Source of the DNA: a virus
Lineage: Duplodnaviria > Heunggongvirae > Uroviricota > Caudoviricetes
Length of the DNA: 64,000 nucleotides
Virus record (IMG/VR): IMGVR_UViG_3300012286_000299
Coordinates: 45,277 to 109,276 of that record
Strand: one strand, 5' to 3'
Shown piece by piece: positions 12,484 to 51,129 of the stretch. Each line of letters begins with the position of its first letter. Positions within the stretch are counted from its first letter, which is position 1. The notes below the pieces were generated by a model. That model ran no database searches. It was not told the origin of the DNA and saw only the letters and a list, made by a program, of their open reading frames with translations. Both the position numbers and the translations under genes were made by a program.

Positions 12484-12819
12484 ATGGAATTTTTAGGATT
12501 TCTACTATTTATAGCAGCATTCATATTAATACTTCCTTTAACATTACTAAATTTTATTGTAGTAAAAAGTAAAAAAGGATATTTTCTAAGTACAGCTATA
12601 AATTTAGATATTTTTGCAAATAGAGAATTTAGAGCAACTTGGAATAAGTTTTTAAAAACTCCTGAAGGGTATGAATTTGGAAAACAAGGTGAAACAATTT
12701 CATCAGCATTAGGGAAAAACCAAAGAGATAATACATTAACCAAAACAGGTAAAGCATTATGTGCTTTTTTAGATTTTTTGGATAAAAATCACTGTAAAAA
12801 CTCAATTAGAGAATTATGA
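12484..12819 (+). CDS. Membrane-anchored hypothetical protein
   Basis: N-terminal hydrophobic helix; GETISSALGKNQRDNTLTKTGK motif. Confidence 0.6.
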   Translation: MEFLGFLLFIAAFILILPLTLLNFIVVKSKKGYFLSTAINLDIFANREFRATWNKFLKTPEGYEFGKQGETISSALGKNQRDNTLTKTGKALCAFLDFLDKNHCKNSIREL

Positions 12820-13187
12820 AAAATTTTTACATTGAATGTCCAATTTGTCCAATATTAAGAGACAACGTTGTTAGGTATGTAACAAATACCAAAAAAATAT
12901 TTACACCAGATTTTATAAAAGAAAATTACTACAAGCATTTAATATTCTCAGCAGTACTTACTTTCTTTGCAATTTGGTTTTTATTTGTTAATGCCTATTT
13001 AGGAGATACAGGAATCTTATTTCCAATTTTTATAGGAGGGTTTGGAGCTTATGCTGCTAATTTTGCTAGAGAATGGTATTATAGTAAATTCCACGGAGCA
13101 CCTTGGGATGGAGTAGATTTAGATATGGGAAGTTATGGAGGTATAATAGGAGCTAGTTTATTCCTGATCTCTCAATATTTATTATAA
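12816..13187 (+). CDS. Multi-pass membrane hypothetical protein
   Basis: About three hydrophobic segments; ATGA overlap with previous ORF. Confidence 0.55.
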   Translation: MKNFYIECPICPILRDNVVRYVTNTKKIFTPDFIKENYYKHLIFSAVLTFFAIWFLFVNAYLGDTGILFPIFIGGFGAYAANFAREWYYSKFHGAPWDGVDLDMGSYGGIIGASLFLISQYLL

Positions 13188-40680: not shown

Positions 40681-41466
40681 ATGAAAATATCACACGAATT
40701 ACCATTAAATTTATTAGAACACAGTATAGATTGGAACGATTATGAATATTGTTTACCACATCTTTTAGATAAACATTCGGATTATAGACAATATTTTTTA
40801 GATTCAAGAGAAAGAGATAGATTCATTATCATGGATAATGGATTATTTGAGGGAGTAACTCATACTACTCAAGATTTACTTGAAAAAATTGATTTAATTA
40901 AGCCTGATATTTTTATTGTTCCTGATGAATGGAATAATTCAACAATTACGGCTAAAAATGCTAAACATTGGTTACAATACAAGATGCCAATGCGTACTAA
41001 ATTAATGGTAGTATTACAAGGAAAAACCGTGAGTGATATTCATTTATTATATAAACAATGTATAGATTTAGGTTATACACATTTTGCATTTAACCATTCA
41101 TCTATTGTGTATCAAGAATTAGGTGGATCTGAAAATTCATTAGCTAATCAATCTGTAGGAAGAGTATTATTAATACAATATTTACTATCCCAAAATGTAA
41201 TTAAAGAACATCATTATATTCATTTATTAGGAGCATCAACTCCTCAAGAATTTACATTCTATAGAGATGCTTTACCAACATTAATTAATTCAGTTGATAC
41301 TTCAAATCCTATAATTTGTGGAGCTTTAGGTATTAAGTATACTGAATTTGGTTTATTAGAAAAACCTAAAGAAAAAATTGAAGAGTTTATGGAAGAAAAT
41401 TTGGATTCTCAATTAGAAGATATTATATTTAACGTAAAGAAATTTAAAGAGTTTTGTAATAAATGA
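40681..41466 (+). CDS. TGT-fold (tRNA-guanine transglycosylase/DpdA-like) protein
   Basis: IIMDNGLFEG, IVPDEW, VVLQGK, IHLLG, SVDTSNP; adjacent to queC. Confidence 0.55.
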   Translation: MKISHELPLNLLEHSIDWNDYEYCLPHLLDKHSDYRQYFLDSRERDRFIIMDNGLFEGVTHTTQDLLEKIDLIKPDIFIVPDEWNNSTITAKNAKHWLQYKMPMRTKLMVVLQGKTVSDIHLLYKQCIDLGYTHFAFNHSSIVYQELGGSENSLANQSVGRVLLIQYLLSQNVIKEHHYIHLLGASTPQEFTFYRDALPTLINSVDTSNPIICGALGIKYTEFGLLEKPKEKIEEFMEENLDSQLEDIIFNVKKFKEFCNK

Positions 41467-41606
41467 TAAAGTTTTATTTAATACAATTTATAAATTATCC
41501 ACTTAGGTGGTTTGGGTATAGTTATCAAAGAATGGCTGAAATAAATTATGAAACATTTGAAATAACTTATTATCCTTGGAAATTAGAAAAATTAAAACAC
41601 AAATAA
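41463..41606 (+). CDS. Small hypothetical protein (47 aa)
   Basis: ATGA overlap with upstream stop; fills gap before next gene. Confidence 0.4.
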   Translation: MIKFYLIQFINYPLRWFGYSYQRMAEINYETFEITYYPWKLEKLKHK

Positions 41607-41610
41607 AGTT

Positions 41611-41838
41611 ATGGAAGCACAAAAACCTTACATGATGTCTCTTTATGAGTATCTAGGTAGAGCCGCAGGGCCGGAATTAGGAAAAGAAGTAGCAGAAACT
41701 GCTGTTAAATTGAGAGAAACTATTAAAGAGCAGAATGTTTCAAATCCCAAATATACTGGTAAAGTTTTACTTTATCGTAGAGAATTCCTAGATGAATATT
41801 TTGGGAAAAAGATTTACGAAGGAGAAAAAAAAAAGTAA
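41611..41838 (+). CDS. Hypothetical protein
   Basis: MMSLYEYLGRAAGPELGKEVA; AAAGTT-ATG start context. Confidence 0.6.
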   Translation: MEAQKPYMMSLYEYLGRAAGPELGKEVAETAVKLRETIKEQNVSNPKYTGKVLLYRREFLDEYFGKKIYEGEKKK

Positions 41839-41845
41839 TTATAAA

Positions 41846-41877
41846 AGGGTTTGCCTATACCCTACTAATACCTGGCA
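41846..41877 (+). promoter_or_regulatory. Predicted H-type pseudoknot in queC leader
   Basis: AGGGT/ACCCT stem; loop TGCC can pair with downstream GGCA; 17 nt before ATG. Confidence 0.4.
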
Positions 41878-41894
41878 CAAATTAAATTATAATT

Positions 41895-42848
41895 ATGTCT
41901 AAAAAACACGTTGTAGTATCCTTAAGTGGAGGAATGGACTCAAGTACTTTATTACTTAGATGTCTAAAAGAGTATGATAGTGTAACAGCTATCTCATTTG
42001 ACTATGGACAAAAACATAGAGTAGAGCTAGAAAGAGCTCAATCATTGGTAAATTACTTAAATTCTACTTTAACTAAAGTAGAAGGGCTAACTCAAGGACA
42101 TCAAGATTTTTTTAAAGAAAACGGTATAGATGTCGATTCTTTTTTAGAGAGTAAAAAACAAGAACACGGACCTATCAATTATCGTCAAATCCAATTAAAT
42201 GGGTTAGTTGATCTATTAGATTCAGCTTTAGTAACAGGAGGTGAAGAAGTACCAGAAGGTCATTATGCAAAAGATAATATGAAAGCAACTGTTGTTCCTA
42301 ACAGAAACAAAATATTTGCTTCCATTACTCAAGCAGTAGCTTTATCAGTTGCTAATCGTACAGGAGAAACTTGTGACATAGCTTTAGGTATCCACTCAGG
42401 CGATCATTCTATTTATCCTGACTGTAGACAAGAGTTTATAGATGCAGATGATGCTGCTTTTAGAATGGGGAATTGGGATGCTGAAAGAGTAGGTTATTTT
42501 ACACCTTACTTGGAAGGAGATAAATTTACAATTTTACAAGATGGAGAAGTATTATGTAAAGAGTTAGGTTTAGATTTTAATGAAGTTTACAAAAGAACTA
42601 ACACTTCTTATAAGCCAATTTTTATCTTATTCCCTGAAGCTGAGAAGTTAAAAGCATTAAATGTAGATGATTCAAGACTAGGAAACTGGTACTCAGATTA
42701 TAAATCAGCTTCATCAGTTGAAAGAGTAGAAGCATTTATTAAGTTAGGAAGAAAAGATCCGGCTCCTTATGCAGACGAAACAGGGCCAGTAACATGGGAA
42801 CATGTAGTAGAAGAAGTAACAAAAGTGTTAGAAGCACATAAAATATAA
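41895..42848 (+). CDS. queC: 7-cyano-7-deazaguanine synthase
   Basis: SLSGGMDSST, FDYGQKH..E, VVPNRNKIF, YPDCRQEF. Confidence 0.9.
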   Translation: MSKKHVVVSLSGGMDSSTLLLRCLKEYDSVTAISFDYGQKHRVELERAQSLVNYLNSTLTKVEGLTQGHQDFFKENGIDVDSFLESKKQEHGPINYRQIQLNGLVDLLDSALVTGGEEVPEGHYAKDNMKATVVPNRNKIFASITQAVALSVANRTGETCDIALGIHSGDHSIYPDCRQEFIDADDAAFRMGNWDAERVGYFTPYLEGDKFTILQDGEVLCKELGLDFNEVYKRTNTSYKPIFILFPEAEKLKALNVDDSRLGNWYSDYKSASSVERVEAFIKLGRKDPAPYADETGPVTWEHVVEEVTKVLEAHKI

Positions 42849-42931: not shown

Positions 42932-43348
42932 ATGAACGATAAAACATCAAATTTTATAGGGTATAGTCAAACTCTAGGAGTACTAACAGGAAATCCATCA
43001 ACAACCCTTACAACAAACTGTAACGGAACAGTTAATATACATGCCGACGGTAATTGGGCAACTCCTCTTAATGGAGGAAGCGGCTTAAGCTATAGTAACG
43101 GAAGCGAATATAATTCATTATCAACATTAATAACAAATCAAAATAACATGGTAAAACAAGTAAAAGTAGCTGTATTTACAGTAGAAAGAAATGACAAGAA
43201 TCAAGTAACATCTACAAAATTCGTAAATGAACTATGGGTAGAAGTTAAAAACGGTACTTCATTAGATTTAGCTGTAGCTAAGCAATTGGATAAAGATTTT
43301 GACCCAAGTAATACAGTAGTAAGAGAAATTACTTCAATTACTTTCTAA
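42932..43348 (+). CDS. Hypothetical protein
   Basis: 138 aa; low-complexity N-half, KVAVFTVER C-half. Confidence 0.55.
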   Translation: MNDKTSNFIGYSQTLGVLTGNPSTTLTTNCNGTVNIHADGNWATPLNGGSGLSYSNGSEYNSLSTLITNQNNMVKQVKVAVFTVERNDKNQVTSTKFVNELWVEVKNGTSLDLAVAKQLDKDFDPSNTVVREITSITF

Positions 43349-43353
43349 AAAAG

Positions 43354-43385
43354 TTTGGAGAATAAAAATTAGTTTCGTATATTAA
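43354..43385 (+). promoter_or_regulatory. Promoter
   Basis: TTTG-N20-TATATTAA preceded by TTCG. Confidence 0.75.
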
Positions 43386-43405
43386 ATCAAATAAAAAAAT
43401 AAAAA

Positions 43406-43612
43406 ATGAAAAAAGTATTTTTAGCATTAGCCATTATTATGGCAATCACAGTAACAAGCTGTAAACAAGGAGAATCAACTGAAGTAACAACTGTAGATAC
43501 AGTTCAAGTAGACACTGCAAAAGTGGATACAACTGCAAAAGCAGACACTACTAAAGTAGATACAGTAAAAGCTAGTTTTACTCCAACTACAGAAGTACAC
43601 GCTGTAAAGTAA
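43406..43612 (+). CDS. Small lipoprotein with repeated DT(V/A/T) sequons
   Basis: MKK + hydrophobic core + VTSC lipobox; five D-T-X motifs. Confidence 0.75.
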   Translation: MKKVFLALAIIMAITVTSCKQGESTEVTTVDTVQVDTAKVDTTAKADTTKVDTVKASFTPTTEVHAVK

Positions 43613-43755
43613 TACTAAAATAACCTGTACCCTTGAGATACTCATTAAGATAGCAGGTTAGCTCGAAATAAAAGGGTAATAGAATAAGAGCAAATTAAAC
43701 TGTTAAGGTAGGATGTCAGTTATAGAGAGGTGAGCCATACCTATTCCTCTCAAAA

Positions 43756-43870
43756 TAGTCAGGTGGCGGAAAGGTAAACGCTCACAGGTTGGTATTGTAA
43801 AAGAGGAATTGACCTCCATCTCCATGTTTTAATGGTTATACCTTACAGGTTCAAATCCTGTCCTGACTAC
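43756..43870 (+). ncRNA. tRNA-like RNA with expanded, anticodon-less central domain
   Basis: AGTCAGG/CCTGACT acceptor, GCG..GGTA..CGC D arm, ACAGG-TTCAAAT-CCTGT T arm, ~60 nt insert. Confidence 0.6.
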
Positions 43871-43935
43871 AAAAGTTTTTGAAAACAAATTGCGGTTTTC
43901 ATCCTTATTATATATTTATAGTCACAAATAATAAA

Positions 43936-44076
43936 ATGATACAAGTTCAAAACATACATCAATTAAATAGCATAGCGCAGAGAGCCATTACAATGTGGTC
44001 GGATTCGTTATGTGGAGATGTTGTTCTTGGCTTTACGTATAATAACGAACCGAAACAAACCAAAACCGGGATATGA
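43936..44076 (+). CDS. Putative leader peptide (46 aa)
   Basis: ATG 17 nt after ATATTTAT motif, AAATAATAAA context; followed by terminator and tRNA cluster. Confidence 0.55.
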   Translation: MIQVQNIHQLNSIAQRAITMWSDSLCGDVVLGFTYNNEPKQTKTGI

Positions 44077-44108
44077 TATAAGTAATTATAACATATAAAT
44101 TCTAATAA

Positions 44109-44144
44109 GAAACCCGGATCAAAAAAAAGATTCGGGTTTTTTTT
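44109..44144 (+). terminator. Intrinsic terminator/attenuator before tRNA cluster
   Basis: AAACCCGGATC-A8-GATTCGGGTTT plus T run. Confidence 0.85.
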
Positions 44145-44152
44145 AAGAAAAA

Positions 44153-44184
44153 TTTGGAAATACAAAAAAAACTTCGTATATTAC
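44153..44184 (+). promoter_or_regulatory. Promoter of tRNA cluster
   Basis: TTTG-N20-TATATTAC. Confidence 0.75.
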
Positions 44185-44231
44185 GAATGTTAAAAAGATA
44201 AAGAGTTCATTGACATATTGGATAAAATTAA

Positions 44232-44319
44232 GGAGAGGTAAGCCAAGTCGGTCTACGGGTCGCGGTCTTGAAAACCGTTGGGTGTAACAGCCGTGTGAGT
44301 TCAAGTCTCACTCTCTCCG
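44232..44319 (+). tRNA. tRNA-Ser(TGA)
   Basis: GCGGT-CTTGAAA-ACCGT, long variable arm, GTGAG-TTCAAGT-CTCAC. Confidence 0.9.
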
Positions 44320-44325
44320 CAATAT

Positions 44326-44397
44326 TGCTTCATAGTGTAATGGTTAGCACAAAACACTTTGACTGTTTTAGTTTGAGTTCGAGTCTCAATGAAGCAT
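44326..44397 (+). tRNA. tRNA-Gln(TTG)
   Basis: AAACA-CTTTGAC-TGTTT; TGCTTCA/TGAAGCA acceptor. Confidence 0.9.
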
Positions 44398-44407
44398 CAA
44401 TTAATTT

Positions 44408-44483
44408 CTGGTAGTAGAGGAGTCCGGTTTATCTCGCTGGCCTTGGACGCTAGAGCACGCAGGTTCGAATCCTGCCTACCAGA
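44408..44483 (+). tRNA. tRNA-Pro(TGG)
   Basis: CTGGC-CTTGGAC-GCTAG; GCAGG-TTCGAAT-CCTGC. Confidence 0.9.
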
Positions 44484-44489
44484 CAACAT

Positions 44490-44562
44490 TCCTTCGAAGC
44501 TCATGTGGACGGGCACCGGGCTTTTAACTCGGGGGTAGTTGGTTCGAGGCCAACCGGGGGAA
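44490..44562 (+). tRNA. tRNA-Lys(TTT)
   Basis: CCGGG-CTTTTAA-CTCGG; GTTGG-TTCGAGG-CCAAC. Confidence 0.85.
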
Positions 44563-44650
44563 CAAAATCAACTAGTCACTGTAAAACCAGTGGGCGTCAG
44601 TAAGTATTCTGAGCGACGTTTAAATCCTGAAAGCAATTGTTGATTTATTT

Positions 44651-44721
44651 GCCTCTGTCGTCTAAAGGTAGGGCCGTTGTTTTACATGCAACAGGTGGTG
44701 GTTCGATTCCATCCAGAGGTA
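44651..44721 (+). tRNA. tRNA-Val(TAC), atypical
   Basis: GCCTCTG/CAGAGGT acceptor; anticodon loop only 6 nt (TTACAT); extra G before T loop. Confidence 0.55.
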
Positions 44722-44729
44722 CAAAAATT

Positions 44730-44810
44730 GGGTAGCAAAAGTCGTTCGGATACGGCAGCCGGTCTGTAAAATCGGTCCTCACGGGGGTGGTTCGAGTCCA
44801 CTGTTGCCCA
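44730..44810 (+). tRNA. tRNA-Tyr(GTA)
   Basis: CCGGT-CTGTAAA-ATCGG; variable arm; GGTGG-TTCGAGT-CCACT. Confidence 0.85.
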
Positions 44811-44874
44811 CAGAATAGTAGAGAAAGGGTAGTCCGTTCCCCTACAACCAGTATACAGGTAAGCGGACGCATAA

Positions 44875-44947
44875 GGAGCTTTGGCAGATCAGGTGATTGC
44901 GCTAGACTGAAAATCTAGAGGAACGGGCTCGATACCCGTAGGCTCCA
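44875..44947 (+). tRNA. tRNA-Phe(GAA)
   Basis: CTAGA-CTGAAAA-TCTAG; T loop CTCGATA atypical. Confidence 0.85.
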
Positions 44948-44956
44948 CAAAAAATT

Positions 44957-45028
44957 GGATTGTTAGCTCAGAGGCAGAGCGGTTGTTTGTTAGGCAACGG
45001 GTCGGGATTTCGAAATTCCCACAATCCT
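44957..45028 (+). tRNA. tRNA-Asn(GTT)
   Basis: GTTGT-TTGTTAG-GCAAC; GGATTGT/ACAATCC. Confidence 0.8.
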
Positions 45029-45034
45029 CAAAAT

Positions 45035-45106
45035 TGCTCTATCGTATAAAGGTTATTACGGTTGACTGTTAATCAATTTATCTAGGTTCGAGTCCTAGTG
45101 GAGCAG
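45035..45106 (+). tRNA. tRNA-Asn(GTT), second copy
   Basis: GTTGA-CTGTTAA-TCAAT; CTAGG-TTCGAGT-CCTAG. Confidence 0.9.
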
Positions 45107-45116
45107 CAAATAAAAA

Positions 45117-45240
45117 TGGGGAAGAAATTCAAAACACTCTCGCGAATTTCTTCAGGAATGATAGTTAAGTAAAGAGTTACATCGGTAAAAACAAGCACTT
45201 GAAATTGTAAGTTAGTTGGTTCGAATCCAACCTTCCCCAC
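45117..45240 (+). ncRNA. tRNA-like RNA with acceptor stem and T arm but non-canonical interior
   Basis: GGGGAAG/CTTCCCC stem stacked on GTTGG-TTCGAAT-CCAAC; ~90 nt interior with GAAGAAATTC/GAATTTCTTC hairpin. Confidence 0.5.
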
Positions 45241-45369
45241 AAAGACTTTTTGTTTGATTAGGAATAATAGGTAGGTCGATAATTATTCCATGGCCCAGAA
45301 ACAATTAGTTAATATCACCAAGGAGGGGTCCATTAGAGGTGATTAATAAATATCTATAAACTCCTGCCA

Positions 45370-45442
45370 CGGTGCGTAGCTCAATCGGTAGAGCGCTGAT
45401 CTGATACGTCAGAGGTAGTGGGATCGTAACCCGCCGTACCGA
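45370..45442 (+). tRNA. tRNA-Ile(GAT)
   Basis: CTGAT-CTGATAC-GTCAG; T loop ATCGTAA atypical. Confidence 0.85.
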
Positions 45443-45510
45443 CAGAAAACCTAGAGTGCTCATTGAATGATGTGGATACAATTCCCGTTCCTTAAGTTCT
45501 AGGTTAAATT

Positions 45511-45597
45511 GGAGAATAGTCTAATATTGGTTTGTAGTGGCATCCTGCTAAGATGTTCCAGGTAAAACTGGTGAGGGTTCGATTCCCTTGTTCTCCG
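45511..45597 (+). tRNA. tRNA-Ser(GCT)
   Basis: GCATC-CTGCTAA-GATGT; CCAG-GTAAAA-CTGG variable arm. Confidence 0.9.
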
Positions 45598-45726
45598 CAA
45601 AAACCTACTCACCGTCCTCATTACGTGTTTAAGGAACACAGGAGTAGAATAGTACGCTCGGTGACTCAGTGGTAAGACACTTTAAAATCTAAAGTACAAC
45701 GATAAGTTAATGGGTTCTTATCAAAT

Positions 45727-45796
45727 ACCGAATGATCTTGGTGATCGAGAATGGCTCATATCCGCTCTCAGATTGGTTCGAAACCAATATTCGGTA
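45727..45796 (+). tRNA. tRNA(CAT), atypical compact
   Basis: ACCGAAT/ATTCGGT acceptor, CTCATAT loop, ATTGG-TTCGAAA-CCAAT; minimal D arm. Confidence 0.55.
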
Positions 45797-45919
45797 CAAG
45801 TAGCCCCGCTCGCGAGGGGATCGTAAAACACAGTAAGCCTCTGACACAAGCTCAAGTAACTGTTCTCATCGTATAGGAGATAGAGTTAACCTTCTCGACG
45901 TCGTGTAAAAAGGTAATAT

Positions 45920-45992
45920 GGTGTTTGTAGCTGAATGGTAAAGCGCTTGATTGTGGTTCAAGAGATTGCGGGTTCGAGTCCCGTCTTACACC
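45920..45992 (+). tRNA. tRNA-His(GTG)
   Basis: CTTGA-TTGTGGT-TCAAG; encoded G-1 opposite C73. Confidence 0.88.
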
Positions 45993-45999
45993 CAAATAT

Positions 46000-46072
46000 G
46001 CCCCTGTGGTGGAATGGAAGACACAACGAGTTTAAGCCTCGTAAACTGCAGGTTCGACTCCTGTCAGGGGTA
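46000..46072 (+). tRNA. tRNA-Leu(TAA), short variable loop
   Basis: ACGAG-TTTAAGC-CTCGT; variable region AAACT only. Confidence 0.85.
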
Positions 46073-46077
46073 CAATT

Positions 46078-46149
46078 GGTCTTATAGTTTAATTGGAAAA
46101 ACTTATCGCTACGAACGATAGAACAAAGGTTCGATCCCTTTTAAGACCT
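46078..46149 (+). tRNA. tRNA-Arg(ACG)
   Basis: TATCG-CTACGAA-CGATA; GGTCTTA/TAAGACC. Confidence 0.88.
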
Positions 46150-46151
46150 CA

Positions 46152-46304
46152 AAACATAATTACAAAGCGTAGATAAGAAGACGTGGAGAGACGTGTCGCA
46201 AGGGTACACAGTTGGGATAAACAGAAATGTTCGGCTCTCGATGGCTGTGTGAAGCACTGAGAAATCAGAAACCAGATTCCTGATAAATCTTATCAATTAT
46301 GTTT
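46152..46304 (+). ncRNA. Unassigned structured RNA between tRNA genes
   Basis: AAACATAATT/AATTATGTTT closing stem, GATAAGA/TCTTATC, ACACAG/CTGTGT, CTGA-GAAA-TCAG. Confidence 0.45.
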
Positions 46305-46308
46305 ATTT

Positions 46309-46381
46309 GCCCTTATAGCATAAATGGAAATGCCACATCCTTCTAAGATGTTCAATACCTGTTCGAATCGGGTTAGGGGTA
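46309..46381 (+). tRNA. tRNA-Arg(TCT)
   Basis: ACATC-CTTCTAA-GATGT. Confidence 0.85.
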
Positions 46382-46387
46382 CAAAAT

Positions 46388-46458
46388 GCGTTCCGCAGAC
46401 AAGGTGTCGGTCAGGTCTCCAAAACCTCGACGGCTGGGTTCGATTCCTAGGGTTCGCG
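46388..46458 (+). tRNA. tRNA-Trp(CCA)
   Basis: AGGT-CTCCAAA-ACCT; two T-T mismatches in acceptor. Confidence 0.75.
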
Positions 46459-46495
46459 CAAATTTAAATAATTGTTTCACTAAAAACCAGAAATC

Positions 46496-47002
46496 ATGAG
46501 TAAGTATCAAAAAACACTCGTAGTGGATTCAAGCTTTATTGCAAGATCAATTATCAGTACTGAAAGAGCATTCGTGATTTCGTACAAGGGTAATGCTGAA
46601 GTAGTAGCTGAACATCCAGAAACTTTCGGATTAGTAAATCCGGAATTAGAAATTTTTAAACCTTCAATTATTAGGGTTTATAAGTATGTAAAGCAAAACA
46701 TTCAAAAAGTTCCTCCAACAAGAGAAAACATCTATAGAAGAGATAACTTTGAATGTGTATATTGTGGAGACAGCAACCAAAGAACATTAACGTTAGATCA
46801 CGTTATTCCTCAATCAAAAGGGGGAAGAAATACATGGGATAACTTAGTAACAGCTTGTAAAAGATGTAATAGTGAAAAAGCCGATTTAACATTAGAAGAA
46901 TTTGGAAAGGAAATACCAGAACCAAAACGTCCTCATTACTTAATGTTGTTAAGACAAATTCACGATATTCCAAAAGAATGGGAACATTTTTTACTTTTTT
47001 AG
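46496..47002 (+). CDS. HNH endonuclease (McrA-like)
   Basis: RRDNFECVYCG, LTLDHVIPQSKGG..TWDNLVTACKRCNSEK. Confidence 0.92.
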   Translation: MSKYQKTLVVDSSFIARSIISTERAFVISYKGNAEVVAEHPETFGLVNPELEIFKPSIIRVYKYVKQNIQKVPPTRENIYRRDNFECVYCGDSNQRTLTLDHVIPQSKGGRNTWDNLVTACKRCNSEKADLTLEEFGKEIPEPKRPHYLMLLRQIHDIPKEWEHFLLF

Positions 47003-47046
47003 TAGGATATTCAAAATAAATTTTGTATATTTAATTATAATAAAAT

Positions 47047-47126
47047 AAATAAACACCTGCTACGTAATCACTGCAGGATAACACGTACAGACAAGGAAGA
47101 AAAGGTCAGTCCAGGTGTTTTTATTT
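47047..47126 (+). ncRNA. Unassigned hairpin-closed element abutting tRNA-Cys
   Basis: AAACACCTG/CAGGTGTTT closing stem. Confidence 0.3.
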
Positions 47127-47198
47127 GGTCCTAAGGCTGATGGTTAAGCTCCACGTCTGCAAAACGTAGGATTTAAAGTTCGAATCTTTATAGGACCT
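47127..47198 (+). tRNA. tRNA-Cys(GCA)
   Basis: ACGT-CTGCAAA-ACGT; GGTCCTA/TAGGACC; T discriminator. Confidence 0.88.
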
Positions 47199-47201
47199 CA
47201 A

Positions 47202-47253
47202 AAAAACTTTTAAAAAAAGTTTGGTTACGCAAAAAATATTTCGTATATTTAAG
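47202..47253 (+). repeat. ~52-bp promoter cassette duplicated at 48854-48906
   Basis: AAAAACTTTT(T)AAAAAAAGTTTGGTTAYGCAAAAAATATTTCGTATATTYAAG; contains TTTG-N20-TATATT. Confidence 0.85.
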
Positions 47254-47273
47254 ATGTAATAAAATAAATAATT

Positions 47274-47347
47274 GCCCGAGTAGCCGAATTGGTATAGGCG
47301 CTAGACTTAGGATCTAGATTTTGCGAGTTCGAGTCTCGCCTTGGGTA
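47274..47347 (+). tRNA. tRNA-Leu(TAG), short variable loop
   Basis: CTAGA-CTTAGGA-TCTAG; variable region ATTTT. Confidence 0.88.
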
Positions 47348-47352
47348 CAAAA

Positions 47353-47421
47353 TTAGAGTTAGCTTATAGTAAAGCAGTAGGATTCGGTTCCTACAGAACG
47401 GATACGAAAACCGACTCTAAT
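47353..47421 (+). pseudogene. Degenerate tRNA-Pro(CGG)-like
   Basis: TTAGAGT/ACTCTAA acceptor, 8-nt anticodon loop ATTCGGTT, degenerate T loop. Confidence 0.45.
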
Positions 47422-47426
47422 TAAAT

Positions 47427-47500
47427 GCTTCTGACGCATAAACGGTGGTGCACTTGATTTGTAACCAAGACTAGAGTCGGTTCGATCCCGATCAGAAGCT
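47427..47500 (+). tRNA. tRNA-Thr(TGT)
   Basis: CTTGA-TTTGTAA-CCAAG; GCTTCTG/CAGAAGC. Confidence 0.85.
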
Positions 47501-47581
47501 CAGGTGTGTCTCGGTACGCTCTGACGAAAGTCAACGACGAGGTCTCGGTAGACAGAACGCGTCTGATTCTACCCATAATTT

Positions 47582-47654
47582 GCGGGTGTCGTATAAAGGC
47601 TAATTATCTTTGACTTCCAATCAAATGATGAGGGTTCGATTCCCTCCATCCGCT
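47582..47654 (+). tRNA. tRNA-Gly(TCC)
   Basis: TTTGA-CTTCCAA-TCAAA; GCGGGTG/CATCCGC; T73. Confidence 0.92.
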
Positions 47655-47661
47655 CAAAACT

Positions 47662-47733
47662 GTTGCGTTAGTGAAGAGGTTAACACGTATCACTTTCTAT
47701 GATAAGGCACGGGTTCGATCCCCGTACGCAATA
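47662..47733 (+). tRNA. tRNA-Glu(TTC)
   Basis: TATCA-CTTTCTA-TGATA; unusual T at position 37. Confidence 0.75.
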
Positions 47734-47738
47734 CAAAA

Positions 47739-47811
47739 GGGTCGGTAGCATAAATGGCAAATGCGCTTGATTTGCAATCAGGAAGATTGGGTTCGAATCC
47801 CACCGTATCCA
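47739..47811 (+). tRNA. tRNA-Ala(TGC)
   Basis: CTTGA-TTTGCAA-TCAGG; G3:T70 pair; two acceptor mismatches. Confidence 0.75.
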
Positions 47812-47879
47812 CTACCCCGACAGGTGAATAGCTTAATCGACTTTACAGATTTGACAACTTGGAATAGACAGGTAATTTT

Positions 47880-47951
47880 GGTCTATTGGTGTAATGGTAA
47901 CAGTACTATCCTGTCACGGTAGTGTAGAGGGTTCGATTCCCTCATAGACCG
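47880..47951 (+). tRNA. tRNA-Asp(GTC)
   Basis: CTATC-CTGTCAC-GGTAG; GGTCTAT/ATAGACC. Confidence 0.9.
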
Positions 47952-47953
47952 CA

Positions 47954-48042
47954 AAATAAGTAGTAAGTAATTGAGATACTTCGAAATCTATTAGCAAAAT
48001 TGAAACTTCAAAAATCTTCTCAATTCAATCATTCTCTTATTT
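47954..48042 (+). ncRNA. TACTTCG-family structured RNA, copy E (no tRNA module)
   Basis: AAATAAG/CTTATTT and AATTGAGA/TCTCAATT stems; arms nearly identical to copy C. Confidence 0.7.
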
Positions 48043-48046
48043 AATT

Positions 48047-48120
48047 CGAGGCATAGTAGAGTTGGTTACAATGTCGCCCTGTCACGGCGAAGGTCACGGG
48101 TTCGAGTCCCGTTGTCTCGG
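48047..48120 (+). tRNA. tRNA-Asp(GTC), second copy
   Basis: TCGCC-CTGTCAC-GGCGA; ACGGG-TTCGAGT-CCCGT. Confidence 0.9.
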
Positions 48121-48132
48121 CAAATATTAAAT

Positions 48133-48207
48133 GGCGGGTGGATCCGGTTGGTATCGGGGATAGTCTCATAAGCTATATTAAACGTGGTTCGATTCCACGA
48201 CGTCGCA
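48133..48207 (+). tRNA. tRNA(CAT), Met or Ile2, imperfect acceptor stem
   Basis: ATAGT-CTCATAA-GCTAT; CGTGG-TTCGATT-CCACG. Confidence 0.6.
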
Positions 48208-48218
48208 ACAAATTAAAC

Positions 48219-48320
48219 GGCAATGCTCTTAGGAGAGGCGGTGTTTCATGAGCACCAAATGAAGGAGTGGAATGTTAATGAGCTCTTAAACATTCTTCGG
48301 TTCGAATCCCCTCATTGCTA
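48219..48320 (+). ncRNA. tRNA-like RNA, CAT loop with very long variable arm
   Basis: GGCAATG/CATTGCT acceptor; GGTGT-TTCATGA-GCACC; GAATGTT/AACATTC extra hairpin; weak T stem. Confidence 0.45.
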
Positions 48321-48334
48321 CAAATAAAATACAT

Positions 48335-48406
48335 AGCGGGATAGAGCAGAGGCAGCTCGTTGGGCTCATAACCCAAAGGTCGGAGGTTCGAATCCTCCTC
48401 CCGCAA
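48335..48406 (+). tRNA. Initiator tRNA-Met(CAT)
   Basis: GGG/CCC at base of anticodon stem; 1:72 mismatch. Confidence 0.88.
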
Positions 48407-48412
48407 CTAATT

Positions 48413-48486
48413 GTCCTTTTAGCTCAGTTGGTTAGAGCAGCTCGCTCATAACGAGAAGGTCACAGGTTCGAGTCCTGTATAGGACA
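48413..48486 (+). tRNA. tRNA(CAT), elongator Met or Ile2
   Basis: CTCG-CTCATAA-CGAG; canonical D and T arms. Confidence 0.88.
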
Positions 48487-48552
48487 CTAAAATTTTATCC
48501 ATTATGAGGTCAATTCCTTCGTCTCCAATGTAAGTTAGCTACTGGCTAATTT

Positions 48553-48786
48553 ATGACTCAAAATTTGAGAATTTGGAGAGTAGTTCCTACCAGTAAGACT
48601 GGTGTTCAGGCTCCCACGTTTTTTGTTGAAACAACAGAGAACGGACGAGAAGAAGCAGTAGCATCTGCAAACCGCCAAGCAAGACAGAGATCAGGTTTGG
48701 GTAAGTTTAACAATTGGAATTTCGAATTAACTAAAATGAATGTCAGAGTTGACAAACATGGAAGATATATTCGTCACCACCAATAA
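48553..48786 (+). CDS. Small basic hypothetical protein
   Basis: 77 aa ORF; phage-like start context. Confidence 0.55.
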   Translation: MTQNLRIWRVVPTSKTGVQAPTFFVETTENGREEAVASANRQARQRSGLGKFNNWNFELTKMNVRVDKHGRYIRHHQ

Positions 48787-48805
48787 GAAAGTATTTGAAG
48801 AAAGG

Positions 48806-48837
48806 TTTGGAAACCTGAGCCTTTCTTCTTATATTGA
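48806..48837 (+). promoter_or_regulatory. Promoter overlapping terminator-like hairpin
   Basis: TTTG-N20-TATATTGA within AAGAAAGG/CCTTTCTT inverted repeat. Confidence 0.6.
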
Positions 48838-48872
48838 ATAAAGAAAAATAAATAAAAACTTTTTAAAAAAAG

Positions 48873-48904
48873 TTTGGTTATGCAAAAAATATTTCGTATA
48901 TTCA
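48873..48904 (+). promoter_or_regulatory. Promoter of structured-RNA/TROVE unit
   Basis: TTTG-N20-TATATTCA. Confidence 0.8.
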
Positions 48905-48943
48905 AGCATAATAAAAAGATTAAAACGTTCATTGAAAAAAATA

Positions 48944-49076
48944 TTGTAAGTGGTAAGTAAGTAAGAGTTACTTCGTTTTTTAGCTCATCTGGTAGAGCAT
49001 AAATTTTTGGTATTTAAGGCAGCAGGTTCAACTCCTGCAAAAACTCACAGACACTCTCTTCACCATTCCCTTACAA
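48944..49076 (+). ncRNA. Y-RNA-like copy A enclosing a normal-order tRNA-Gln(TTG)-like cloverleaf (48975-49044)
   Basis: TTGTAAG/CTTACAA outer stem, GAGTTACTTCG motif, D arm GCTC..GAGC, TAAAT-TTTTGGT-ATTTA, GCAGG-TTCAACT-CCTGC. Confidence 0.7.
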
Positions 49077-49082
49077 CACATA

Positions 49083-49227
49083 TTATAAGTGGTAATAACA
49101 CGTGTTACTTCGCTCTGTTAAAGCCGTGGTCGTGGGTTCGAGCCCCACTCTGAGAAACGTAAATGTCGTCTTAGATAGCTCAGTTGGTAGAGCACGTAAA
49201 TCGACACAGTTAGTCATTCCCTTATAA
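49083..49227 (+). ncRNA. Y-RNA-like copy B with circularly permuted tRNA-Asn(GTT)-like module
   Basis: Order: anticodon hairpin, T arm, acceptor 3' TCTGAGA, loop, acceptor 5' TCTTAGA, D arm; TTATAAG/CTTATAA outer stem. Confidence 0.75.
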
Positions 49228-49235
49228 AAACATAA

Positions 49236-49315
49236 TCAAGTGGTAAGTATTTGAGATACTTCGCAAATTTTTAGGTATAATTTTCACAATCTTCTCAAAT
49301 CAATCATTCCCTTGA
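49236..49315 (+). ncRNA. Y-RNA-like copy C (no tRNA module)
   Basis: TCAAG/CTTGA and TTTGAGA/TCTCAAA stems; GAGATACTTCG motif. Confidence 0.7.
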
Positions 49316-49319
49316 CACA

Positions 49320-49466
49320 TAAAGTAGTAGTAATAGAAAGAGTTACTTCGTATATTGGTTCGATTCCAATATTTTCCGCCAAAACAGGAAAATTAGACAA
49401 ATGGTTAAGTCATCTAACTGCAAATTAGACAAAAATTGTTCACTCTTCTAAATGTTCTCTACTTAT
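49320..49466 (+). ncRNA. Y-RNA-like copy D with circularly permuted tRNA-Cys(GCA)-like module
   Basis: Order: T arm, acceptor 3' ATTTTCC-G-CCA, linker, acceptor 5' GGAAAAT, D arm, TCTAA-CTGCAAA-TTAGA. Confidence 0.78.
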
Positions 49467-49471
49467 TTATC

Positions 49472-49508
49472 AAGGGGATTAGGACGCAAAGCGACTCAAT
49501 CCCCTTTT
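49472..49508 (+). terminator. Hairpin/terminator-like element between RNA array and TROVE gene
   Basis: AAGGGGATT/AATCCCCTT stem plus short T run. Confidence 0.55.
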
Positions 49509-49551: not shown

Positions 49552-51129
49552 ATGGCAAGATACAACACAAAAGCAGTATCAAAAGTACAGACAGTAACTA
49601 ATCACCAAGGTGGTACAGGTTACGCTATCGATCCAAAATTGGAATTAATCGGTATTTTAGCAACAGGGTTAGATAACTCTTATTACGAAAAACTAACAGA
49701 TAAAGAAACTCGTTTCAAAACTCTGATTGTTGATTTAGCTAAGAAAGATCCTGAGTTCGTAGCCAAAGCATTGGTATACGCTAGAACAGTAATGGGACAA
49801 AGAACAGTTACTCACTTCGGTGCAGTAGCACTTACTCCAGCACTTTCTGGTAGAGCAGTTGCTAAAAAATTCTTCTCAAAGAGAGAGAAAAAAGTTAATA
49901 AAGGAGGTATCGTATTCAGATTGGATGATATTCTTGAAATTGTAGCATGTTACCAACACTTCAATCCAGGTAAAGCATTACCAAACTCGATGAAGAAAGG
50001 TTTCAAAACTGCATTAGAATCAGCAGATGCTTACGAATTGGCTAAATATCAAGGTAAAAATAGATCTGTGTCTCTTGTGGATGTTGTGAACTTAGTTCAC
50101 CCTACTCCAAAAGAAACAATGCAAGAAACTTTCAAACAGTTAATGAATGGAAATCTAAAACAATTCAATACTGTTGAGGATAAAAACACAAAAGCTGGAC
50201 AAGAAGTAGCTGCAAAAGTTAAGTCAGGTGAAATTACTAAAGCTCAAGCTGAAGTTGTTTTACAAGAAGCTAAAGAATCTAACTACGCTGAGTTAATCAA
50301 AACTAGAAAGATTGGATACCTAGCATTACTACGTAATTTAAGAAACATCTTAAATACTACAGGAAATGCTGAGTTAATCAAAGCAGCTTGTGAATTGTTA
50401 ACTGATGAGAAATTAATCAGACAGTCATTAGTATTTCCTCACCAAATTGATATCGCATTAGAGGTATTAGTTCTAGAGGTAGGAGCTTCTCAAGCTAGAC
50501 CATTCGTAGCAGCTTTAGATAAAGCATACGAATTAGCTATTCCAAACTTAACTGATTTATTTGCTCACGGTAGAACTGCAGTTGTATTCGATACATCAGG
50601 TTCTATGCACGGAATGGGTCAAGGAGTTAAGATCAATGGGAAAGCAATTAATAAACAATGTATGGAGAAAGCAGCCTTAATTGGTGCAACTCTTGCAAAA
50701 GGTATTGGAGCTGACTTATACCAATTCGGTACAACTTGTGAGGAAGTAAGATACAATCCAAATGATAGCATCAACACTATCAAGAGAATTGGATTATCTC
50801 AAGAAGGTAGAGTAGGTCACGGAACTAGTTTCAACTCAATCTTCGAAACATTAAGTAGATCAGGTAAGTATGATAGAATCTTTATCATCTCCGATTTACA
50901 AGGTGGAGATAGTATTGTAGGTAACAGTAGCTTTAAAAACTACAAATCTAAGTTCGGAGAACCAACAATCTACTCAATTGATATCCAAGGTTACGGGACT
51001 ACAATGTTCAAACCAGGAAACAAATTAGTACAATTGTTCGGATACTCAGCAGATATCTACGAGATGGTTAGACGTGCAGAAATGGACCCTAAAGCAATCT
51101 TAACAGCTATCAACGCTATTGAAATTTAA
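49552..51129 (+). CDS. Ro60/TROVE-domain RNA-binding protein with C-terminal vWA
   Basis: VTNHQGGTGY, DPEFVAKALVYAR, YELAKYQGK, YLALLRNLRNI, LVFPHQ, VFDTSGSM, IFIISDLQ, IDIQGYG. Confidence 0.92.
   Translation: MARYNTKAVSKVQTVTNHQGGTGYAIDPKLELIGILATGLDNSYYEKLTDKETRFKTLIVDLAKKDPEFVAKALVYARTVMGQRTVTHFGAVALTPALSGRAVAKKFFSKREKKVNKGGIVFRLDDILEIVACYQHFNPGKALPNSMKKGFKTALESADAYELAKYQGKNRSVSLVDVVNLVHPTPKETMQETFKQLMNGNLKQFNTVEDKNTKAGQEVAAKVKSGEITKAQAEVVLQEAKESNYAELIKTRKIGYLALLRNLRNILNTTGNAELIKAACELLTDEKLIRQSLVFPHQIDIALEVLVLEVGASQARPFVAALDKAYELAIPNLTDLFAHGRTAVVFDTSGSMHGMGQGVKINGKAINKQCMEKAALIGATLAKGIGADLYQFGTTCEEVRYNPNDSINTIKRIGLSQEGRVGHGTSFNSIFETLSRSGKYDRIFIISDLQGGDSIVGNSSFKNYKSKFGEPTIYSIDIQGYGTTMFKPGNKLVQLFGYSADIYEMVRRAEMDPKAILTAINAIEI

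Follow-up and report, generated by a model that had tools for sequence, protein, structure and literature searches.

A 46-codon leader ORF containing all 20 amino acids precedes the tRNA gene cluster of a myovirus and may form a tRNA-sensing attenuator

Results and discussion

The window analysed here, a stretch of 64,000 nucleotides from a 173,276-bp IMG/VR virus record (30% G+C), contains a leader open reading frame (ORF) of 46 codons in which all 20 amino acids are encoded (43936-44076 on the + strand; ATG at 43936, TGA at 44074-44076), followed by an intrinsic terminator and a large tRNA gene cluster. The ORF, the terminator and an alternative pairing between the end of the ORF and the 5' arm of the terminator are conserved in related phages, the composition of the ORF is under selection, and the unit is linked to tRNA clusters. 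The interpretation favoured here, by a modest margin, is a ribosome-mediated transcription attenuator in which the leader ORF serves to check every part of the decoding system; what is inferred is that the ORF is translated, how ribosome position would act and what effect it would have on read-through.

An initial annotation of the window, made from the sequence alone, had proposed a tRNA-pool-sensing attenuator at this locus. The comparative evidence presented below supports this interpretation, with the mechanism inferred from geometry and folding and without expression data. Every sequence feature that the annotation listed is present where it had been placed, including the 46-codon ORF with every amino acid, of which the sequence was checked, and its G/C-ending codons (GCG, GCC, TCG twice, ACG, CCG, GGC, GGG and ACC twice), to which AGC, CAG and two AAC codons can be added. 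The description of the leader as lying ahead of the tRNA operon held in part, as Rfam identifies a 113-nt tRNA-like gene upstream of the ORF (43757-43869). The check that it had suggested for related phages, namely that composition and complementarity should be kept, was positive on both counts; its expectation that the leader sequence would not be conserved failed, most of the leader being conserved, at the protein as well as the nucleotide level.

All long ORFs of the window are on the + strand, and matches to PHROG families of tail tube, baseplate and adaptor proteins assign the phage to the myoviruses. The nearest cultured relative is Flavobacterium phage vB_FspM_immuto, with which it shares 79% identity in the QueC protein, and a host among the Bacteroidota is therefore likely. 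The leader is absent from vB_FspM_immuto, which has just 3 tRNAs. No tblastn hits to the leader peptide were obtained in 50,697 phage records, and no cultured carrier was found.

Conservation of the leader ORF and its association with tRNA clusters

Related loci were collected through the neighbouring QueC gene, independently of the ORF (80 loci), and leader homologues were sought by a nucleotide pattern scan (47 viral loci), a degenerate peptide scan (53 loci), a protein search (90 clusters, all unnamed or hypothetical except for one evidently spurious source label) and an exhaustive profile search (25 representatives at the 50% identity level). The unique homologues number 128 peptides of 44 to 51 amino acids. 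One version (L049) has about 30% identity, and its divergent subfamily has only two database relatives. The leader peptide matches no PHROG or Pfam family, and AlphaFold2 predicts a low-confidence N-terminal helix only, with no confident fold (pLDDT 58.8).

The ORF is intact in more than 100 relatives. Its frame is the sole open frame of the six in all 48 unique regions, and indels among relatives are all multiples of three. The leader ORF is regarded as genuine: its coding frame is conserved and goes together with tRNA clusters, and its translation is inferred. Coding on the antisense strand or in another frame was considered and ruled out, no other frame being open throughout the relatives.

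The conservation of the frame bears on the possibility that the region encodes a structured non-coding RNA, like the stable small RNAs of the T4 tRNA cluster, in which the open frame is incidental. This explanation could account for the unusual conservation of synonymous sites and for the folding of the leader region, which is better than that of shuffled sequences (z -4.9). It is nevertheless very unlikely, considering the single open frame, the in-frame indels and the selection on amino-acid and codon-class content described below. A mid-ORF hairpin is predicted (approximately 44000-44050), which has invariant or merely wobble-compatible pairs and is weakened in some relatives; no compensatory changes in mid-ORF helices were found among the relatives. 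Nor does the region belong to an Rfam family: among Rfam leaders the only hit was to Thr_leader (RF00506) at 44086-44146, with 23 bits against a gathering threshold of 55 (E = 0.62), and this sub-threshold hit covers the terminator alone.

The tRNA gene cluster (44232-49046, + strand) begins with tRNA-Ser(tga) at 44232 and comprises 25 genes according to ARAGORN. A relaxed ARAGORN run adds tRNA-Trp, tRNA-Thr and another tRNA-Met inside the cluster, which therefore serves all 20 amino acids; compared with Rfam, the added tRNA-Thr scores above threshold, tRNA-Trp has a weak tRNA-Sec hit only, and tRNA-Met has no hit. At 14 loci besides the window, a syntenic leader homologue is located 112 to 240 nt before tRNA-Ser(tga). 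The leader unit is present in 15 of 15 QueC-syntenic loci with 18 to 24 tRNAs (or truncated within such a cluster) and in none of approximately 65 related QueC loci without a large cluster (zero to four tRNAs). Four distant homologues, for which the contigs were fetched, keep the order of ORF, terminator, conserved box and tRNA-Ser-Gln-Pro. Among the relatives compared, the leader unit is thus found solely with large tRNA clusters.

Selection on amino-acid and decoding-class content

By chance, all 20 amino acids are present in 0.7% of 46-residue windows of the proteins of this phage and in 1.2% of random 46-mers; the caveat that 46 residues may hold all 20 by chance thus applies at 0.7-1.2% to the window alone, and the comparative data support selection. 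All 20 are found in 118 of the 128 unique homologues, compared to 94.8 ± 2.8 (maximum 103 in 1000 trials) under a null in which residues were shuffled within alignment columns. Among the 25 representatives of 50%-identity clusters, 17 have all 20 (0.8 expected from the pooled composition of the family itself), seven lack one amino acid and one lacks two, and Trp, His, Arg and Cys occur at many different positions.

Rare residues are relocated rather than lost. His is present in 1.02 copies per leader peptide; the canonical His8 has been lost in 18 sequences, of which 16 have His elsewhere, at seven or more positions that include the C-terminal tail, and a second His is found in just 3 of the 104 sequences that keep His8 (Fisher 2e-15). 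Trp has relocated at least twice, with no losses compared to 3.7-3.8 expected. Cys is absent from about 4-8% of members; a match between leaders without Cys and genomes without tRNA-Cys was sought and not found, and L046 has a leader without Cys yet possesses tRNA-Cys. His, Trp, Cys, Tyr, Pro and Arg are each present about once per leader (0.96-1.15 copies), and there are no tandem or clustered regulatory codons.

Codon classes were counted in 52 unique leader coding sequences. Both classes of each of the split families Ser, Leu and Ile are present in 52 of 52, where the null predicts sequences lacking the class as follows: Ser-TCN, 0.5; Ser-AGY, 7.9 ± 2.0; Leu-TTR, 0.9; Leu-CTN, 8.9 ± 2.1; Ile-ATY, 5.9 ± 1.8; and Ile-ATA, 0.7. 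The AGY, CTN and ATY classes have a mean of only 1.6-1.75 copies per sequence, and their single copies float over 5 to 8 alignment columns. After thinning, class absences numbered 3 compared to 17.8 ± 2.5 in 18 representatives, and 2 compared to 10.8 ± 1.9 in 11 representatives. As a control for class compensation, thirty-four 50-codon windows were taken from seven neighbouring genes; for the same 14 genomes the leader has z = -4.69, whereas the neighbouring-gene windows have a mean of +0.26 (sd 1.40, minimum -2.23), and 3 to 8 classes are missing per sequence in the control windows compared to about one in the leader.

Overall, leaders cover 22 to 23 of 24 decoding classes. The leader of the window covers 23 and uses 30 different codons, compared to 17.8 ± 1.9 classes (0.3% reaching 23) and 24.0 ± 2.8 codons in gene windows of the phage. 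The exceptions to class coverage are Arg-CGN, which is present in 5 of the 52 coding sequences, and internal Met, present in 20 of 52; these poorly sampled classes nonetheless have encoded tRNAs, tRNA-Arg(acg) and tRNA-Met. Thus, selection acts on the leader to retain all amino acids and almost all tRNA classes, as judged by a null that is not tree-aware: the shuffling ignores the phylogeny, but the number of positions involved and the control from the same genomes argue against a phylogenetic artefact.

The terminator and its alternative pairing with the ORF tail

The intrinsic terminator (44110-44144, + strand) has an 11-bp stem (44110-44120/44129-44139), a loop of eight A and a T-run to 44144, with a predicted folding energy of -19.5 kcal/mol (z -6.4) and three compensatory base-pair positions across 39 relatives. 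In the tail of the ORF, CCGGG (44066-44070, + strand), 3 nt before the stop codon, is complementary to CCCGG (44113-44117) in the terminator 5' arm. Thus, the strong terminator noted initially between the leader ORF and the tRNA cluster held by sequence, folding and covariation; the complementarity of CCGGG to the left arm also held, as did, for this window, the caveat that the antiterminator is only 5 bp.

In 45 of 47 relatives, no other part of the leader complements the terminator 5' arm as well as the tail of the ORF does; the duplex energy with the arm averages -9.8 kcal/mol for the tail (the last 15 nt or so) and is no better than -4.7 elsewhere. The helix of tail and arm, which spans 5 to 10 bp among relatives, is part of the predicted minimum free energy (MFE) structure of the nascent RNA in 42 of 47 relatives when the whole leader is folded and in 47 of 47 when the local segment is folded. 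In local folds without the 3' arm it closes the structure around one or two small hairpins, and with the 3' arm included the terminator is the favoured fold in 39 of 47. Of the 17 terminator-like hairpins compared across the genome, none has a 5' arm with a stronger complement upstream than this one.

At least seven tail sequences or frames were observed (CCGGG, CCGAG, GGTACC, GATCTGGG, GATTTGGG, GATCGGAGT, UCCGGGU and others). Tails and arms covary in the 8-bp versions, where GATCTGGG occurs with CCCGGATC and GATTTGGG with CCCAAATC, and distant homologues pair with other letters, for example UCCGGGU:ACCCGGA. The association of G/A with C/T at a single position (CCGGG/CCGAG with CCCGG/CTCGG) is weak at the haplotype level (5/5/4/3), and reliance was therefore placed on the 8-bp variants and on whole-duplex energies, which are -9.65 for cognate haplotypes of tail and arm compared to -8.63 ± 0.23 for permuted ones (0 of 2000 permutations as good). 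The C-terminal residues differ freely (TGI, TEV, DLG and more), yet every tail pairs with its own arm. Thus, the tail of the ORF is variable as protein and constrained as RNA.

The RNA preceding completion of the terminator (44056-44128) has a predicted folding energy of -13.7 kcal/mol (z -4.6); in this fold, the CCGGG:CCCGG helix stacks on a small hairpin (44071-44096, + strand) that includes the stop codon. In this predicted hairpin, ATGATAT is invariant and ACATAT nearly invariant in the first 14 relatives, and a comparable inner hairpin is found in most relatives. If untranslated, the leader RNA is predicted to antiterminate. The complementary segment of the tail ends 1 to 6 nt before the stop codon in 47 close relatives and 11 to 14 nt before it in three distant ones, distances at which a ribosome positioned at the stop codon would cover it. 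An exception is L305, where the segment is located 27 to 38 nt before the stop codon, outside the terminating ribosome. In L028/L089 the ORF has been kept although the 3' arm of the terminator is destroyed. No anti-antiterminator or pause hairpin (1:2) with covariation was found. The terminator is 6-12 kcal/mol more stable than the alternative helix, and the 5-bp helix leaves the loop-proximal AUC of the 5' arm free.

Promoter-like sites and the conserved box before the first tRNA

A promoter-like box, TATATATTTATA (43909-43920, + strand), with the core TATTTATA, is located 16 nt before the ATG of the leader ORF and is present in almost all aligned relatives; the motif ATATTTAT, which had been annotated at 43912, was confirmed and lies within it. 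The + strand has 15 copies of the TATTTATA core and the - strand has 5. Ten copies are found 14 to 30 nt before genes (including those for tail tube, baseplate, adaptor, PhoH and RNR), often directly after terminators, and many of these genes are structural. From the strand bias and the placement before genes, the leader ORF appears to own a phage-type promoter.

After the terminator, a consensus scan identified an internal sigma-70-like site (44153-44182, + strand) consisting of TTGGAA, a 17-nt spacer and TATATT (44154-44182), which may also be described as TTTGG, about 20 nt, and TATATT. The initial caveat of a separate promoter at 44153 thus held to the extent of a promoter-like site, without transcript data. 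The site is conserved in most relatives, doubled in L006 and L010, and absent from L003/L107 and L304. In L304, tRNA-Leu begins 10 nt past the T-run of the terminator; the tRNAs of L304 and L003/L107 therefore appear to depend on read-through. Just 5' of the first tRNA is a near-invariant 23-nt box (44204-44226, + strand), unique in the window, which is identical in nearly all close relatives, L011 having a 1-nt insertion, and can still be recognised in distant ones.

Frozen codons and conservation of the peptide

The leader ORF has a GC3 of 0.37 compared to 0.14 genome-wide, which places it in the top 0.6% of windows, and the relative use of eleven of its codons in this genome does not exceed 0.09. 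In the 15 QueC-syntenic genomes, 12 of 14 columns with an invariant residue in the leader use one codon, compared to 0-45% (mostly 20-29%) of such columns in seven neighbouring genes. Many of the frozen codons belong to the rarest of the genome (TCG twice, CCG, GCG, GGC, ACC and AGC; relative use 0.02-0.06). Ascertainment by nucleotide sequence is not the cause of this freezing, because the first set of homologues came from a protein search; it is also excluded because 47 of the 53 loci found by peptide pattern carry the exact nucleotides. The rare codons possibly serve as slow test codons, or they may be needed for RNA structure, and the evidence does not discriminate between the two. Conserved residues of the leader are W21, C26, D28, G32-F33 and Y35-N-N-E-P-K40. 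The Gly29 and Val32 columns exhibit synonymous drift with the residue kept, indicating that the peptide matters as a peptide too.

These observations raise the alternative that the ORF is simply a gene for a small phage protein, equipped with a promoter and terminator of its own and adjacent to an independently transcribed tRNA cluster, and that the full set of amino acids and the complementarity are by-products. In its favour are the protein-type selection at columns such as Gly29 and Val32, the promoter-like site after the terminator, the predicted helicity of the N-terminal half, and the persistence of the ORF in L028/L089 without an intact terminator. However, a protein gene would not explain the relocation rather than loss of His, Trp, AGY, CTN and ATY, for which neighbouring genes of the same genomes show no such compensation; nor would it explain the frozen rare codons, or the freedom of the C-terminal residues, and even of the frame, with RNA complementarity kept. 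The lack of a Pfam or PHROG family and of a confident fold, and the occurrence of the ORF solely with large tRNA clusters, also weigh against this alternative, which is considered unlikely.

Proposed mechanism

In the attenuator interpretation, a phage promoter with the TATTTATA box would start a short RNA that would be translated at once. In smooth translation, the ribosome would read the 46 codons and come to sit on the last codons and the stop codon, where it would cover CCGGG and also melt the stop-codon hairpin, allowing the terminator at 44110-44144 to form and transcription to end. If a ribosome started late, were absent or stalled at an earlier codon, the tail of the ORF would pair with the 5' arm, leaving the terminator incomplete, and RNA polymerase would continue into the tRNA genes. 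Stalling might be caused by scarce, uncharged or cleaved tRNA or by amino-acid starvation. Because no amino acid, and neither class of Ser, Leu or Ile, lacks a codon in the leader, tRNA synthesis would be stepped up when almost any tRNA ran short and reduced when tRNAs were plentiful. Upstream of the tail, the ORF already contains all amino acids and both classes of each split family, and the residues of the tail all occur earlier too, so almost any decoding deficit would be expected to give the same output. With a promoter-like site after the terminator in most members, the tRNAs would have a basal route of expression as well as a conditional one.

Several observations weigh against an attenuator. 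The 5-bp helix is weak compared to the 11-bp terminator in this window, and in most members the downstream promoter-like site can drive the tRNA genes on its own. A single codon per amino acid, without tandem runs, would be expected to make a poor sensor. Unlike classical leader peptides, this one is conserved as protein; Arg-CGN and elongator Met are mostly unsampled, and Cys is sometimes missing. The position of the segment in L305, the ORF without an intact terminator in L028/L089, and the lack of a supported pause or anti-antiterminator helix must also be counted.

A second alternative retains a translated decoding sensor and assigns to it another output: stability or processing of the tRNA precursor, release of a trans-acting small RNA or peptide, or signalling by an arrested or completed peptide. 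The evidence from composition fits this alternative equally well. It could also accommodate the strong nucleotide conservation in the middle of the ORF, which a switch between tail and terminator does not explain, the near-invariant 23-nt box before the first tRNA, to which no role has been assigned, and the YNNEPK motif conserved 6 codons before the stop. Against it, the mutually exclusive helices of tail with 5' arm and of the terminator are the hallmark of attenuation and have been kept in all members. No trans target was found when the window was searched for complements of three conserved mid-ORF blocks, the only matches being the blocks themselves. Another output is therefore considered unlikely, and attenuation remains the preferred reading.

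A bolder version of the attenuator would make it a universal decoding sensor, which measures the whole pool of charged tRNA, including damage by tRNA-cleaving defences of the host, and exerts feedback on the phage's own complete tRNA set, with the frozen rare G/C-ending codons as slow test codons that set its sensitivity. This version is offered tentatively, the evidence at present falling a little short of favouring it.

Comparison with known systems

For decades, codon supply and escape from tRNA-cleaving immunity have been debated as reasons for the presence of tRNAs in phages. Phage tRNAs replace depleted or cleaved host tRNAs, in a context of counter-defence and supply (PMC10264068, PMC11464382); the titles and abstracts of these two papers do not mention a regulatory leader before tRNA genes, and no account of leader-peptide control of tRNA genes was found in the literature searched. 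To our knowledge, the regulation of phage tRNA genes is essentially undescribed. If the attenuator interpretation is correct, tRNA genes would for the first time be known as targets of an attenuator, a leader would for the first time be seen to read global decoding capacity rather than one amino acid, and there would be direct evidence that phages monitor the tRNA pool. The compositional signature, with every decoding class kept and positions free, provides a search rule for such sensors elsewhere.

The locus has most of the defining features of leader attenuators: a short ORF 5' of the genes, an intervening terminator, an alternative helix on the terminator 5' arm, a tail under the terminating ribosome (except in L305), and codons cognate to the tRNAs of the cluster. 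Tandem or clustered regulatory codons are lacking.

T-box riboswitches, which occur mainly in Firmicutes, bind one uncharged tRNA directly, without translation, and regulate aminoacyl-tRNA synthetase and amino-acid genes. They resemble the system proposed here in coupling the state of tRNA to terminator read-through; the T-box covariance model gave no hit at E ≤ 1 in 43000-49500. The leaders mgtL and mgtP of Salmonella mgtCBR respond to translation speed (PMC3641672), and TnaC and SecM are arrest peptides. In these, as proposed here, the progress of a ribosome on a short ORF selects among RNA structures, and a conserved peptide can participate; however, they sense proline, Mg2+, Trp or secretion, and none samples the whole code or controls tRNA genes.

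The closest parallels are leader-peptide attenuators of amino-acid biosynthetic operons (PMC1183508, PMC3082878). Among such attenuators are trpL, hisL, pheL and leuL. Shared with these are a short translated leader (translation being inferred here), a terminator 5' arm with an alternative pairing partner in the last part of the ORF, and a stop codon so placed that the terminating ribosome would cover this partner. Unlike these, the present element belongs to a phage and is under a phage-type promoter, and the genes that it would regulate encode tRNAs rather than enzymes; it has about one codon per amino acid, with the split codon families, in place of tandem runs, its peptide and many of its codons are conserved, and no 1:2 helix was found. 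Multivalent attenuators are also known, the ilvGMEDA leader reporting Ile, Leu and Val and the thr leader reporting Thr and Ile. As in these, one leader would report more than one amino acid, but where they use clustered runs of codons for two or three amino acids, the phage leader has all twenty as single, position-flexible codons.

Conserved sequences of the leader region

The middle of the leader ORF contains conserved blocks, TGGTCGGATTCGTTATGT and GGCTTT..TATAATAACGAACCGAAA (43996-44059), in which third codon positions are conserved far above those of neighbouring genes. No compensatory change was found in a possible pairing of 8-10 bp between these blocks, and the constraint acting on them is therefore unexplained. 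As for the leader terminator in related viral loci, in L304 (1687-1803) a tRNA-Leu(aag) starts 10 nt 3' of it, leaving no space for a promoter, and in L028/L089 (about 12240-12400 of L028) its 3' arm has been replaced by a tRNA-like insertion.

A near-invariant 23-nt box, AGTTCATTGACATATTGGATAAA (44204-44226), is located 5 nt 5' of tRNA-Ser(tga) in nearly all relatives. Two related loci, L006 (about 16378) and L010 (about 16367), have a second, slightly diverged copy of the box ahead of tRNA-Leu(tag), again preceded by the promoter-like site that precedes the first copy. The function of the box is unknown; it could act as a signal for processing or for antitermination, or be bound by a protein.

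The TATTTATA motif, found for example at 997, 1714, 8324, 17626, 18196, 19234, 23849, 35337 and 43913, is strand-biased in the window (15 occurrences on the + strand, 5 on the - strand) and lies 14-30 nt 5' of many genes, often directly after terminators. It probably represents a class of phage promoter that lacks an upstream element.

tRNA genes and flanking genes

Upstream of the leader is a tRNA-like gene (43757-43869) whose acceptor, D and T arms are all intact and which carries an insert of approximately 40-50 nt. It scores 38.5 bits as a tRNA (Rfam), and ARAGORN with relaxed settings calls a Thr(ggt) gene interrupted by an intron of 27 nt. By inference from sequence alone, a tRNA of this Thr(ggt) type would decode both of the ACC codons among the frozen codons of the leader, i.e. 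its rare G/C-ending codons that are conserved across relatives. Another related locus, L007, has two copies resembling this gene (about 12540-12670 and 12800-12930).

On the same side of the cluster, a QueC homologue (Pfam, 1.8e-35) adjoins a 261-aa protein of no clear family (40681-42848). The QueC proteins of the window and of Flavobacterium phage vB_FspM_immuto, which has just 3 tRNAs and no leader, are 79% identical. Beyond the cluster, a sub-threshold Rfam match to YrlA (Y RNA-like; 49124-49199) is present just 5' of the gene for a 525-aa protein (49552-51129) that matches PHROG 850 (RNA-binding protein).

Within the cluster, ARAGORN at a relaxed threshold identified three genes missed at default: tRNA-Trp(cca) (46388-46459), tRNA-Thr(tgt) (47427-47501), which Rfam also scores, and a further tRNA-Met(cat) (45720-45797). 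With these additions, all 20 amino acids are served by the cluster. An HNH endonuclease gene (46496-47002; Pfam HNH_5, 1.7e-18) is also located inside it. Homing endonucleases are likewise embedded in the tRNA regions of other phages.
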